Notes: generated by a model from the sequence alone, not told the origin. A stretch of 32,000 nt of DNA from Pseudomonadales bacterium (GCA_965201045.1 OZ241746.1:4995408-5027407), one strand, 5' to 3'. Shown: positions 16,301 through 18,818, counted from the stretch's first letter. Program-made: numbers and translations.

Positions 16301-18818
16301 TAATCAAATCGGACTGGTTGTAAGTGAATCTGTGGATGGAAAACAAATTTCACATCTTGATTATAATCCTGTTACTGCGTTACCGACCAGAAAAACTGAT
16401 ATAACCGGAACCACAACCTGGTATTATAGTGATGATGGTAAAACACAACAACTGTCTCATGCTGGAATCAATGGGTATCCTGATTATAGTTTCAAATGGA
16501 AATACGATCAGAACAGACGAGAAATCAGTGTAACCGGACCGGCAGGAACTCAAAGATACACAAAATATGATGCGCTGGGCAGAATAAGCTCAATCAGTTA
16601 CCATGAAGCTAATGGTCAAACAGAAAAAGTCTTTACCCCTGTTTATGATGGTTTTTCCAGAGTGATTACTGCTACATACGGCAGCGGTATGAAGAGAAGT
16701 ATTAATTATAACGACTACGGTGCAATAAAAGATGTATCTGATACACTGGACGGTAACCGCTTGTCGGCGTGGCAGTATCAATATAACAAAGAGGGTGATA
16801 TTACATCGCTGGTATACAGTGCAGAAAAAAATCAACAGGCTGTTCTGCACTATCAGTATGATACCCTGAATAACCTCACAGAGATGACCTGCTCCGGATC
16901 AGCAGGATTGACGCTATGTCCTCGGGACACTGCAATGCATGGCTCAGATTTAAAAGAAGCTCCCATTATTACCCGTCAAAACTATTCTTTTAATAATCTA
17001 AATCGGATGACACAAGTACAAGAAGTATTGCTGAGTGCAGACGGAAAAGAAACATTGAATAAAGTTGTCAACTACAGTTATGGAGATGTGCAAGCTCCTT
17101 TACGCCTGCAGAAGATAACCACAATGTGGGATAATAAAATACCACAGACTAACACATTCACCTATGATACGGTGGGTAATATGGTAATCGACAACACGGA
17201 TAATCATATTGCTTACAATGCTTTTAATCAAATTACTTCCGTCATAAATCCGCAAGGAAAACAGACCCGCTATTTTTATGATGGCAGTGAAAGAGAAGTT
17301 AGGGAAGAAGCTGCAACCGGCGATAATCGTAACCTGATTTATAAAGGTAAAACCCTGATCGATGAAGAAATCAGTAACCCACAACAAAAAACGCATATGA
17401 TCAGTTATCTGGGAATAGCTAAAGCGGTTGATGGTGTCATTCATGACTATTATGAAGAAAATTATAAAGGTGATGTCACAGGTGTACTTACCAAAACTGC
17501 AAATGATTACAGCCTGAGCCAGCGCAATGTTTATAGCCCTTATGGCATGGTATGGCATACACATTCCGTCTCTTCATTGCCATGGTATCAGCAAACTTTA
17601 ACAGGTTTTAATGGTGAACAGACTGACCCTGCTACCGGCTGGCAATTTCTGGGAGCAGGTCACAGAACGTATAATCCGAGTCAGCGCTATTTTGTCAGTG
17701 AAGATCCAGCAGGCGATGGTTATGCTTTTGGTAGTAACAATCCGATAATGAACACTGATCCAAGTGGTAATTTTCCCAAATGGATGGGCGGTATTATGCA
17801 CATATTGCGTCATGTGGGTACACTGGGACTGGATACTTTACATAAGAGGTGGGCTAATATCATCGGAGTTACAGCAGTAGTAGCGATTGCTTGTGTCGCC
17901 ATAGCCGTATCTATAGTCGCCGGTGGTGAGGTAACACCTATGATTGCAGCCGCCGCAGGTTTGACGGTCGTTGGCGGTACACTTGCAATCGCATCAGCTG
18001 CTGTTCCTGCAAATAAAGGCTTAAATATTGCCAGTACTGTTGTTGGTTTATTAGCTGCAGCCGTAAATATTGCATCAGGATGTATCTCTGCTTTTTCAAG
18101 CTTTCAGGGAGCATCCCTTGCTGATGAAGCAGAAACTACTACTGATGTAGTTGGTGATGAGTTAGCAAAGGTAGCATCGGTTAGTATGGCGACTGAAGAT
18201 GTCTCTGATTTAACAGTCAAAAGTACTTTTGATATCGCTGAAGCTGACAAAAGTGCTGCTAATACTGCTAGTGGGACCTGGACAAAAGGAGGCAGATACA
18301 GTCTTTTAACCAAAAAGCTTGCTGGCTTTACAAAATCGGAAGAAAATCATGCAGAGTTGAGTATATCAGGTAAATTCAGAGTCGTATGGAATAAAACAGT
18401 CAGTATTGGAATGGGAGTAAAGAATAACACAAGGAACTTATTCGTGATGCTTGCAAAACTAAGATCAATAAGAGATCAGGGCAGATCATTGGGATGGCTG
18501 GCAAATTATCTGAATGTACACACGTCTGGTGTGGGTAAAAATGCTGATTTTACAGAAACAGTGAATATCGAAAAATTCTTTGCTGAATATCCAGGTCTGA
18601 ATCAGCTCGACTACTTTCATTCACTTGCTAATATGATGGGAAGCAAGCAACTGTTGATACTCCCTACAGAGGAGCATCCATATTATACTTATGGTAGTAC
18701 GGTAAGTGATAATGATTGGGGACTAATCCATCTGGACAATAATAATGCAATATCTTCAGAAGTGCTCAATATGAGTGATGAAGCATTTGGTCCTTCTCTG
18801 AATAATAAGAATACATAA
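13323..18818 (+). CDS. RHS/YD-repeat cocoon protein, array copy rhs-2
   Basis: Uninterrupted 1831-codon ORF. GGGGGA lies 4 nt upstream of the ATG, and an in-frame TAG at 13311 closes the upstream frame. Signal-peptide-like MICNFLKTNVIPFFLLCLLLYCELICEA. SpvB/TcB-like signature at 13563-13778. YD repeats, e.g. AVYNGFGSIIKAIDPMGQIVRKNYNSLGQVTDMIDPVGDKIHSVYNLTGQV. Core end HRTYNPSQRYFVSEDPAGDGYAFGSNNPIMNTDPSGN ends at 17771. A 348-aa C-terminal region follows. Confidence 0.93.
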   Translation: MICNFLKTNVIPFFLLCLLLYCELICEALPLPFQNLPATNKKATIVFNKDHTTNAQKNNVPASKLKDEIKKKLLKVSNTNPWSNAVNFSKNWGTQIDPRTGTFTAYVKVGSMISNLGHGPNINLQISYNSDSMVDTDKLGVGWNWNLTYFNPITNQLSTSQGKTFNLSQHTDGTWRPRYHKLHDIQIDGSKDTFFTITYANGLREILDHDGFETTLEQQDGRSVHFDYVPGTHLLSTIRDDQGHKIILTWRYGFVTVTSFDANGKPVNIILKNLDGELRNITLPGKDKQTMLNIDMEYDGHLLDNIIYPTGLKKNVTYNCTDAMPVESPYGDQRYLCVVTKESTDLGAEQPEMVTHYGYSESNADEHNYLGFNSGLSTMPGSLTDVLFEAPAYYTYKTTQDNGLTTQIRTYNKYHLLINTQLISDHTGNLLSSTHYFFCRTDAIDGCAHTSFEDLPATYSLPLKIVTKIWGEHMGSSAVETTENSYDDLGRITSTKDTYGREKIIIYCPTNGNAACPAEPDKWSLTTLVQSVIIKPSEQFKTASEKPLVINNFYKKEPDIKGNDYTLVLASKVVSSGNQQITTTRQYYNDPKNIFEYGLLKTTKLTGNLSSDKTLTAINKDYHYILSADHATKTTYSTVKISADQFKRSPMVTTSLFTNQVLEAADPENKNIVHYHYDYFGRITEEDSGIGTAFAVSKHYQYAISSQKIMLIITASNGLQKKILFDSKGRQLATFSEAISATGKAEPGKWILDRSITYDDYGRIAAKHAYYIDASGQTKQLTKTFFYDDMGRVTAVHLPDKETLVKEYDDPDRCTVAFKYNRNQLRSAISITHSNLLDKPIKQILLPISFSSDQPVSASTLCKLKNIPSTAKVSSAVYNGFGSIIKAIDPMGQIVRKNYNSLGQVTDMIDPVGDKIHSVYNLTGQVVQKWIIPANKNGQQIKQYLLASAQYNAVGELLWKAGEDGKKTWYTYTPDDQIATMTTPAGHVISWQYNQIGLVVSESVDGKQISHLDYNPVTALPTRKTDITGTTTWYYSDDGKTQQLSHAGINGYPDYSFKWKYDQNRREISVTGPAGTQRYTKYDALGRISSISYHEANGQTEKVFTPVYDGFSRVITATYGSGMKRSINYNDYGAIKDVSDTLDGNRLSAWQYQYNKEGDITSLVYSAEKNQQAVLHYQYDTLNNLTEMTCSGSAGLTLCPRDTAMHGSDLKEAPIITRQNYSFNNLNRMTQVQEVLLSADGKETLNKVVNYSYGDVQAPLRLQKITTMWDNKIPQTNTFTYDTVGNMVIDNTDNHIAYNAFNQITSVINPQGKQTRYFYDGSEREVREEAATGDNRNLIYKGKTLIDEEISNPQQKTHMISYLGIAKAVDGVIHDYYEENYKGDVTGVLTKTANDYSLSQRNVYSPYGMVWHTHSVSSLPWYQQTLTGFNGEQTDPATGWQFLGAGHRTYNPSQRYFVSEDPAGDGYAFGSNNPIMNTDPSGNFPKWMGGIMHILRHVGTLGLDTLHKRWANIIGVTAVVAIACVAIAVSIVAGGEVTPMIAAAAGLTVVGGTLAIASAAVPANKGLNIASTVVGLLAAAVNIASGCISAFSSFQGASLADEAETTTDVVGDELAKVASVSMATEDVSDLTVKSTFDIAEADKSAANTASGTWTKGGRYSLLTKKLAGFTKSEENHAELSISGKFRVVWNKTVSIGMGVKNNTRNLFVMLAKLRSIRDQGRSLGWLANYLNVHTSGVGKNADFTETVNIEKFFAEYPGLNQLDYFHSLANMMGSKQLLILPTEEHPYYTYGSTVSDNDWGLIHLDNNNAISSEVLNMSDEAFGPSLNNKNT

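Follow-up and report, generated by a model that had tools for sequence, protein, structure and literature searches.

The 32,000 nt stretch of DNA analyzed here (GCA_965201045.1, OZ241746.1:4995408-5027407; hereafter, the window), from a Pseudomonadales bacterium, carries an array of Rhs/YD-repeat genes, among them rhs2, rhs3 and rhs4, each of which encodes a conserved shell followed by a C-terminal piece that ends in a fast-evolving tail of 188, 199 and 192 aa, respectively. These three tails are one family that diverged in place after tandem duplication; about a fifth of their codons are under positive selection, with two hypervariable segments lying on a conserved scaffold. We are confident that the tail is an orphan, with no detectable relatives outside of its lineage, and we hold it to be slightly likelier than its negation that it is a new, lineage-restricted effector domain, distal in a three-part Rhs cargo, which diversifies in an arms race and whose target would more likely be non-self, possibly eukaryotic.

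The window contains four complete Rhs open reading frames (ORFs), all on the + strand, and a fifth one that is truncated by the window end. Gene rhs2 (13323-18818) is complete and codes for 1831 aa with an N-terminal signal-peptide-like segment; rhs3 corresponds to the ORF at 19133-24724, with the ATG at 19166 (MIYNFLK) as its likely true start; rhs4 (25130-30748) is also a complete ORF; and the 5' part of rhs5 (31223-32000), identified by translation and nucleotide alignment, begins MIYNFLKINITLL… and continues past the window. Genes rhs2-4 lie head to tail with the start of rhs5, with spacers of around 315-480 bp between them, so that the tandem array extends beyond rhs2-4 and includes the rhs5 copy. 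The remaining complete gene, rhs1 (695-6154), is a divergent paralog with around 45% shell identity. Membership in the Rhs/YD family is supported both by the repeat shell (PF05593 with E=3.2e-28, in five stretches in rhs2, and with E=1.7e-15 in rhs1; TIGR01643 with E=1.4e-15) and by the Rhs-associated core, including the DPxG…DPxG motif, which in rhs2 matches TIGR03696 with 50.7 bits (cutoff 32.5) over residues 1404-1482. The core sequence …FVSEDPAGDGYAFGSNNPIMNTDPSGN was found in every copy, the shell end reads …EDPAGDG…NTDPSGN, and the shell (around 1400 aa) showed weak matches to solved Rhs structures (7q97, E=4e-10; also Tse5, 8cp6_B). The NTDPxGN motif is at nt 17751, 23606 and 29651 in rhs2, rhs3 and rhs4; in rhs2, NTDPSGN (17751-17771, + strand) marks the end of the core inside the TIGR03696 match and is the presumed site of autoproteolytic release. 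The N-terminus of each Rhs protein has a single signal-peptide-like hydrophobic stretch, and full-length Pfam and NCBIfam scans of the Rhs proteins found no PAAR, VgrG, TcB/SpvB or toxin domains. The window has a GC content of around 37%, the exact rhs1 and rhs2 proteins cluster with proteins from Endozoicomonadaceae metagenome-assembled genomes (MAGs), and sponge metagenome assemblies labelled ROBB21 contain syntenic scaffolds; the source organism is a sponge-associated Endozoicomonadaceae bacterium.

Downstream of NTDPSGN, the products of rhs2-4 have 348-365 further residues (36.8-39.3 kDa), organized in three parts, all encoded on the + strand. The first is a hydrophobic module of around 110 aa (17772-18110 in rhs2; 23627-23965 in rhs3, delimited by hydropathy and AlphaFold2; 29672-30010 in rhs4, delimited by hydropathy), with three Ala/Gly-rich hydrophobic segments that in rhs2 span residues 33-69, 61-87 and 90-118 of the C-terminal piece (CT). 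The first segment is of transmembrane (TM) grade, with a summed Hessa-type ΔG of around -2 kcal/mol (an approximate value), and the two others are marginal; the module comprises 45% Gly/Ala/Ser and 16 small-xxx-small motifs, and it is flanked by a K/R-rich stretch before TM1 and a strongly acidic one after TM3. The second part is an acidic linker of around 50 aa (18111-18251 in rhs2; 23966-24124 in rhs3; 30011-30169 in rhs4, defined by charge and by the breakpoint test described below), with a net charge of around -8 in rhs2 and of -12 to -13 over CT residues 121-180 in rhs3 and rhs4; it ends in a conserved AEAxxSAAN island. The third part is the tail, modeled as an α/β domain, encoded at 18252-18815 in rhs2, 24125-24721 in rhs3 (the copy used for modeling) and 30170-30745 in rhs4.

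A preliminary description of the window, made from the sequence by eye, proposed a sharp drop of identity at the C-terminal end of these proteins, and both sliding windows and a likelihood test bear this out. In windows of 50 aa, identity between rhs3 and rhs4 was 0.85-1.0 in the shell, 0.98 and 0.87 in the hydrophobic module, 0.65 in the linker and 0.34-0.58 in the tail, while that of rhs2 to rhs3 and rhs4 was 0.72-0.96 in the shell, 0.51 in the module, 0.35 in the linker and 0.22-0.58 in the tail. A fit with one breakpoint placed identity at 91% before and 50% after the break for rhs3/rhs4, and at 85% and 39% for rhs2 against the others, with a 2ΔlnL of 220-240 versus a maximum of 17 in 200 shuffles. 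The early divergence of rhs2 in the module, stronger in the linker, had thus been seen correctly (51%, then 35%), as had the level of identity among tails, estimated at about half (45-53% in pairwise comparisons), and their start some 165-170 residues past the cleavage motif: SAAN is at nt 18252, 24125 and 30170, that is, 167-173 residues past NTDPxGN.

The exact position and extent of the drop differ in part from that description, which had set the boundary at around 18270, 24141 and 30184. Nucleotide identity between rhs3 and rhs4 indeed steps from around 0.87 to 0.6-0.75 at about 24112/30157, but the maximum likelihood (ML) amino-acid breakpoints are 45-75 residues further upstream: at nt 23993/30038 for rhs3/rhs4, the start of the acidic linker, and at nt 18036-18060, within the third hydrophobic segment, for rhs2 against the others. 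The drop is also not restricted to the tail, because the linker (with a ratio of nonsynonymous to synonymous rates, ω, of 2-3) and the first 80 or so residues are poorly conserved as well. The latter, a second poorly conserved region, consists of the signal peptide and a Lys/Asn-rich stretch of around 60 aa (13323-13590, 19166-19440 and 25208-25480), with an identity of 0.25-0.67 and ω of 0.65-1.6. After the tail, nucleotide identity between rhs3 and rhs4 is 0.79-0.84 in the spacer and over 0.9 in the next gene.

The tails align from end to end and share the three motifs that had been described, which form an invariant scaffold (FKxVWNK…IGxGVKxNT…LFxxLAxxR, ExHPYYTYGS and WxxIHxDxNN); 53 columns are invariant among four aligned tails, those of rhs2-4 and of the metagenomic protein P0001. 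AlphaFold2 (AF2) modeled the rhs3 tail alone, from a four-sequence alignment, with a predicted local distance difference test score (pLDDT) of 71 and a predicted template modeling score of 0.73, as a helical half (helices within residues 15-116) followed by a four- to five-stranded sheet and a terminal helix (138-196). The same elements appeared, with pLDDT 75-86 across most of the tail, in a model of the whole rhs3 cargo, in which the module was helical at pLDDT below 45 and the linker, at pLDDT around 23, was disordered. The reproduction of the tail in the whole cargo, together with the disorder of the linker, indicates that the tail is a separate globular domain that is flexibly tethered and, according to these models, folds independently as an α/β domain. 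The end-to-end alignment, the 52-53 invariant columns and the same order of elements in the two AF2 runs agree with the earlier proposal that a single fold is diversifying, with no swapping of unrelated domains.

No toxin signature had been recognized in the tail by eye, and none emerged from database searches. A word-indexed search of 5.8 billion proteins retrieved one relative, P0001, and an exhaustive HMMER search over 1.84 billion cluster representatives retrieved three, P0001, P0002 and P0003, all from the same lineage, in Endozoicomonadaceae sponge metagenomes; P0002 is the rhs2 ortholog, from a contig (L002) with 97% DNA identity to the window. Two scans of GTDB genomes and one of JGI metagenomes yielded no further relatives of the tail. 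No Pfam or NCBIfam family matched it at cutoff in searches with E≤1, the best being AadA_C (E=0.025, below the gathering score), and there were no matches in PHROGs or PADLOC, or among PDB sequences using a tail profile at E≤10. Likewise, Foldseek comparisons of the modeled tail gave nothing significant against PDB, in two runs (best E=0.13, template modeling score ≤0.25), or against BFVD (best E=0.02, score 0.32), and known Tox-/Ntox-, nuclease, deaminase, ADP-ribosyltransferase and peptidase families produced no significant profile or structural match. Weak Foldseek matches to GtgE, EspG, Cpn0803 and YunM recurred, with E>0.1 and scores ≤0.37, and were treated as noise.

The divergence of the tails is essentially nonsynonymous. 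Pairwise comparisons by ML under the GY94 model, in a home-made implementation, gave ω values of 0.23-0.26 for the shell (dS 0.19-0.33, dN 0.04-0.08) and of 0.91-1.51 for the tail (dS 0.35-0.49, dN 0.44-0.53), so that the amount of nonsynonymous change in the tail is around 6-10 times that of the shell; the designation of the tail as fast-evolving is therefore appropriate. The ω of 2-3 in the linker is not significantly different from 1, and that of the module is approximately 0.8-1.2 between rhs2 and rhs3/rhs4. Four-fold sites, compared in codons whose first two bases are identical, diverge about as much in the tail (0.13-0.16) as in the shell (0.14-0.22) and show no synonymous breakpoint among rhs2-4, and the GC content at third codon positions was 0.31 in tail and shell alike. 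Since both measures are equal in tail and shell, tails and shells are of the same age, and we reject the import of old or foreign tails as the cause of the drop. A compositional or synonymous break at the junction between core and tip, as expected from a foreign tip, was not found among rhs2-4; exchange of tips is seen at a deeper level, between rhs1 and rhs2-4, whose tails are unrelated. We therefore consider an in-place nonsynonymous acceleration of the tails to be highly probable.

The dS between rhs3 and rhs4 was 0.06-0.07 in module plus linker (23627-24124 versus 29672-30169), compared to 0.19 in the shell, which suggests a recent gene-conversion tract between both genes that ends close to the SAAN island, making the boundary sharper. 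The island itself (18225-18266, 24098-24139 and 30143-30184), reading GCTGAAGCTG..AA.AGTGCTGCTAATA and encoding AEAxxSAAN, separates two variable regions, the linker and the tail, and is conserved at the nucleotide level, even in rhs2 with its otherwise divergent linker. It may represent a second site of processing or the limit of a gene-conversion tract.

Site models were applied to five tails, those of rhs2-4 and two metagenome copies, and the 5' part of rhs5 served as a control sequence in the selection analysis. Model M0 gave an ω of 1.23, and M2a was preferred over M1a with a likelihood-ratio test (LRT) statistic of 67 (p≈3e-15). The three best topologies gave values of 64-69 (p≈1e-15), and 21% of the sites were placed in a class with ω≈6.9. 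The statistic was 48 with strictly aligned columns, 37 when the pseudogene copy was replaced, and 27.6 (p=1e-6) when the data were limited to the intact copies of the window and the rhs2 ortholog, whereas the N-terminal shell region of five copies, used as a control, had an ω of 0.21 and an LRT of 0.26. Seven simulations under the fitted M1a null produced LRT values ≤0.66 and M0 ω values of 0.48-0.83. Sites under selection and invariant sites occupy different parts of the tail: of the 16 sites whose posterior exceeds 0.95, 13 fall in residues 1-42 and 98-137, and residues 43-97 and 138-180 contain 37 of the 52 invariant columns.

Some copies of these genes in related metagenomes are decayed. 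The same +1 insertion occurs in the second hydrophobic segment of P0001 and P0003, whose tails differ (L001, around nt 500-520; L003, around nt 225-245; corresponding to around 23825-23835 in the window), and splits the shell frame from the tail frame; the insertion either spread by gene conversion or was inherited from a frameshifted ancestor copy. Additionally, in L003 (around nt 994-999; around 24555 in the window) an in-frame stop replaces the Glu of EHPYYTYGS and the His is changed to Arg, making it a pseudogene in that strain. It could be argued from this shared frameshift and from the stop that interrupts the best-conserved motif, as well as from a mean ω of around 1, from the 64% of sites that are neutral and from an ω≥1 also in the linker and the N-terminal stretch, that redundant tails are under relaxed constraint and drift near-neutrally to pseudogenes, the signal of selection being an artefact of alignment, recombination or small sample. 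We regard this as very unlikely, because every complete window copy keeps an intact 5.5-kb ORF, 52 columns are invariant despite a dN≈0.5, the signal persists both when only strictly aligned columns are used and when the pseudogene is left out, and selected and invariant sites are spatially segregated; moreover, neutral drift predicts an M0 ω ≤1 and no class with ω>1, as in the null simulations and unlike the values observed.

The hydrophobic module is as restricted to this lineage as the tail. Besides its homolog in rhs1 (5144-5482, + strand; around 31% identity to the module of rhs2-4), it matched P0004, and also P0005, which is 36% identical and then continues with unrelated sequence; the module profile had no match at E≤10 among PDB sequences, a set that includes full-length Tse5 (8cp6_B). 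The tail of rhs1 (5483-6151, + strand; around 220 aa) is unrelated to the rhs2-4 tail family (hhalign probability 0.1%), as is the P0005 sequence downstream of the module (hhalign). That rhs1 shares the module but has an unrelated tail indicates that, deeper in the family, tails are indeed replaced and, since rhs1, P0005 and rhs2-4 each have a different downstream domain, one and the same module carries no fewer than three C-terminal domains that are unrelated to each other. With no homolog in the collection of 5.8 billion proteins, the rhs1 tail is an orphan too, the second cargo of this kind to be attached to the module.

The conservation of the module between rhs1 and rhs2-4, despite their different tails, raises the alternative that the module is the actual toxin, a membrane-depolarizing pore-former like Tse5-CT, and the tail an accessory recognition, plug or regulator domain that tracks variation of the target surface. 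Tse5 provides a precedent of pore-forming cargo encapsulated by Rhs (PMC10684867, PMC9637101), the composition of the module, with one TM-grade and two marginal segments and abundant small residues and small-xxx-small motifs, would be adequate for such a role, and hypervariable segments on a conserved scaffold would also suit a binding domain. Nevertheless, the module lacks sequence similarity to Tse5 in the PDB comparison above, there is no adjacent TM immunity protein of the Tsi5 type, an ω of approximately 0.8-1.2 between rhs2 and rhs3/rhs4 would be odd for the sole active part, and the invariant polar cluster of the tail (E, H, H, D, N, N) resembles an active site more than a binding surface. 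We thus see this alternative as unlikely.

Concerning that cluster, H147 (in EHPYY) and H167 (in IHxD) are the only two histidines in the rhs3 tail, and both are invariant in rhs2-4 and P0001; the tails contain no Cys. Two invariant histidines on an α/β domain recall the metal-independent, two-histidine RNase toxins, for which an RNase A-like mechanism has been proposed (Ntox18/19/22/26/30/43); there is no match to any Ntox profile, and we take this comparison as a lead only. A ββα-Me (His-Me finger) nuclease, considered because of the strand-turn-strand-helix around WELIHVDENN, had no profile or fold support and was rejected.

No immunity gene was found downstream of rhs2, rhs3 or rhs4. The rhs2-rhs3 spacer (18819-19165) contains no credible ORF, and neither do those at 24725-25207 and 30749-31222; ORFs of at least 40 aa in these spacers are only AT-rich, TTG-started and not conserved across spacers. 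The lack of a credible ORF after any of the three genes implies that there is no adjacent immunity gene, and the arrangement of a classical toxin with its immunity gene directly downstream is therefore absent from the array. Likewise, the window contains no type VI secretion system (T6SS) genes and no TcA-like gene, nor the hallmarks of T6SS effectors (PAAR or prePAAR plus TM domain, or VgrG, near a T6SS). Sec/type II secretion signal peptides are one export route for polymorphic toxins (Zhang et al., PMC3482391), and toxin-like architectures with no adjacent immunity gene, such as RhsT, have been interpreted as directed against eukaryotes (PMC3482391). Additionally, YD-repeat genes with neither immunity genes nor T6SS are enriched in intracellular symbionts (PMC4612132). 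We found no description of Rhs arrays in Endozoicomonadaceae, or of the tail or module, in the searchable literature.

These observations bear on the possibility that rhs2-4 are classical interbacterial polymorphic Rhs toxins, with tails exchanged or diversified by toxin-immunity coevolution and with their immunity genes and delivery system (T6SS or other) located elsewhere in the genome. The Rhs shell, Rhs-associated core and variable C-terminus do match the canonical template; rhs1 and P0005, with a shared module and unrelated downstream sequences, illustrate tip replacement; and the hypervariable patches on a conserved scaffold resemble a toxin-immunity interface. Moreover, Rhs genes are reported to be among the most positively selected bacterial genes (PMC7043789). 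Conversely, none of the copies in the window is followed by an ORF, a signal peptide is present in place of a PAAR or VgrG domain, rhs2-4 lack the synonymous or compositional break expected of imported tips, and no Tox/Ntox Pfam family was matched. Together, these results make an interbacterial toxin of the classical type rather improbable.

In the reading that we favor, that of a new effector domain delivered as the distal part of a cargo, the aspartyl-protease core of the shell would cut off the C-terminal piece, with its three parts, as cargo. The hydrophobic module would insert into the target membrane, in a manner analogous, though not homologous, to the encapsulated, pore-forming Tse5-CT or to the entry domains of CdiA-CT; the flexible linker would tether or pass the tail; and the tail would be the effector that determines activity or specificity. 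In the β-sheet half of the tail, the invariant residues Glu/His…His/Asp/Asn form a cluster that is a candidate active or binding site, and the hypervariable segments could be a surface engaged in an arms race with a factor from the target side. The combination of a Sec signal, no PAAR, no immunity genes and a host-associated bacterium makes a non-self target, possibly eukaryotic (host, grazer or parasite), more likely than sibling bacteria.

Several points weigh against this reading. We infer, rather than observe, the function of the tail, its secretion and its cleavage. Solved T6SS Rhs shells enclose a cargo of only around 15-16 kDa (PMC10684867, PMC9637101), and the cargo of rhs2-4, at 37-39 kDa, is more than twice that size, which makes its full encapsulation by a shell of around 1400 residues uncertain. 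The passage of a TM-grade segment through the Sec translocon of the producer is a second difficulty, because such a segment downstream of a Sec signal is expected to arrest in the inner membrane of the producer. An immunity gene, a T6SS or a TcA-like partner could lie elsewhere in the genome, outside of the window. With respect to selection, the mean tail ω does not depart significantly from 1, and more sites fall into the neutral class than into any other; the code for the site models was home-made and the sample is small, and M2a tests can be inflated by recombination among paralogs and by alignment error in variable stretches. The frameshift and stop in metagenome copies show that members of the array can be dispensable and decay. 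Lastly, the AF2 models were built from only 4-5 sequences, so that the missing structural match is weak evidence for a new fold.

We also considered a more specific, and in our opinion doubtful, scenario, that of a mode of delivery not described before, in which a Sec-exported Rhs cocoon, with neither a T6SS nor a TcA injector, would pass a self-inserting three-helix anchor to a eukaryotic (sponge-cell or vacuolar) membrane, leaving a new-fold domain of around 190 aa tethered on the far side; the copies would then diversify under host-driven selection as a repertoire of Inc-like host-membrane effectors. If delivery to a eukaryotic target that is Sec-dependent, immunity-free and membrane-anchored were true, the significance of the array would rise considerably.

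The TM-grade segment also allows for a very different topology, with the protein anchored in the producer by this segment, acting as a stop-transfer sequence, the shell in the periplasm or on the surface, and the tail as a cytoplasmic signaling or regulatory domain. A signal peptide followed by a C-terminal segment with a ΔG of approximately -2 kcal/mol and a tail devoid of Cys would be consistent with this topology. We nonetheless find it hardly credible, because an intact Rhs autoproteolytic core would cut the shell from its anchor, the charges around the module, with the K/R-rich flank before TM1 and the acidic stretch after TM3, are opposite to the expected pattern, and positive selection on a cytoplasmic tail would have no obvious driver.

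Having an Rhs protein with a variable C-terminus, the array is still a variant within a known framework. It shares with Rhs/YD polymorphic toxins, such as RhsA/B of Escherichia coli and Dickeya, RhsA of P. protegens and Rhs1 of Photorhabdus, the RHS repeats, a core that ends in DPxG, a variable C-terminus and the occurrence of several paralogs per genome. It differs from them in that a signal peptide replaces the linkage to PAAR or VgrG, there is no downstream immunity gene, the variability in rhs2-4 begins around 100-170 residues past the core motif instead of at once, the cargo is 37-39 kDa versus around 15 kDa (PMC10684867), and the tails of rhs2-4 diverged by point substitution in place and not by import of foreign tips. 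The closest parallel for the module is Tse5 from Pseudomonas aeruginosa, in which a hydrophobic segment is also found directly past the Rhs cleavage site and whose shell chaperones a hydrophobic, membrane-inserting CT (PMC10684867, PMC9637101), a role that the shell of rhs2-4 would share. However, there is no detectable similarity between their CTs; Tse5-CT, of 16 kDa, is the entire cargo, whereas here the hydrophobic part is followed by the linker and a globular domain of around 190 aa; and Tse5 has a PAAR-like N-terminus, absent here, and is secreted by the T6SS. In the case of CdiA-CT, the released piece comprises a more conserved, membrane-interacting part for entry into the cytoplasm and a variable C-terminal toxin part. 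This two-part piece resembles the cargo of rhs2-4, although CdiA is a type V secretion filament with a VENN motif, the CdiI immunity gene is, as far as is known, always adjacent, and there is no homology.

RhsT (Ntox43) from P. aeruginosa and the TcB-TcC cocoons of Tc toxins likewise combine a polymorphic-toxin-like architecture with the lack of an adjacent immunity gene, for which an action against eukaryotes has been proposed (PMC3482391), and the hypervariable regions of TcC are large cargos inside a YD cocoon, in a likeness to those of rhs2-4; nevertheless, we found no match to Ntox43 or to the TcB/TcC/SpvB Pfam models and no TcA-like gene in the window. A further likeness is to the YD-repeat genes of symbionts (sulfur-oxidizing, SOX, symbionts of Bathymodiolus; Hamiltonella/APSE), which are host-associated, carry multiple YD/Rhs genes and have no identifiable immunity genes, although they belong to other lineages and have other C-termini; roles towards the host or the enemies of the host have been proposed for them (PMC4612132, PMC7313666). 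Rhs proteins are usually studied as antibacterial toxins delivered by the T6SS, whose diversity arises from foreign tips paired with immunity genes, whereas the array described here took a different route: its genes were duplicated in tandem, and positive selection then acted on two parts of one conserved orphan domain, in proteins that have a Sec signal and no immunity genes. The interactions of Endozoicomonadaceae with animals are poorly understood at the molecular level, and the array provides candidate effectors between symbiont and host, or symbiont and enemy, as well as a domain family that is new and for which a few candidate catalytic residues can be named. It also raises the mechanistic question of how an Rhs shell handles a cargo of 37-39 kDa with transmembrane-grade segments.

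Other features of the window were noted in the course of the analysis. The rhs2-rhs3 spacer lacks, at 18958-18973, around 75-90 bp that are present in the next two spacers (24916-25004 and 30939-31028); scans of the three spacers for promoters and terminators were uninformative, with promoter sites no more numerous than in shuffled sequences and zero terminators. Between rhs1 and the array, a gene on the - strand (6411-10112) encodes a highly charged, coiled-coil-like protein of 1233 aa with no Pfam match, which is conserved and syntenic on the sponge metagenome scaffolds L005 and L006. It is followed by a gene on the + strand (10427-11017) for a protein of 196 aa, with a Gly-rich double hydrophobic stretch of around 60 aa and a Gln-rich C-terminus, which has no Pfam family and is kept in related MAGs; this membrane protein was evaluated as a relative of the module or as an immunity candidate, and rejected because hhalign detected no relationship. 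Finally, ORFs of 129-155 aa occur on the - strand opposite the 3' part of the shell and the module of each copy (17100-17564, 22952-23419, 23695-24084, 28997-29464 and 29740-30129), and are probably a by-product of codon composition, given the Ala/Gly codon bias in the GC-rich module.

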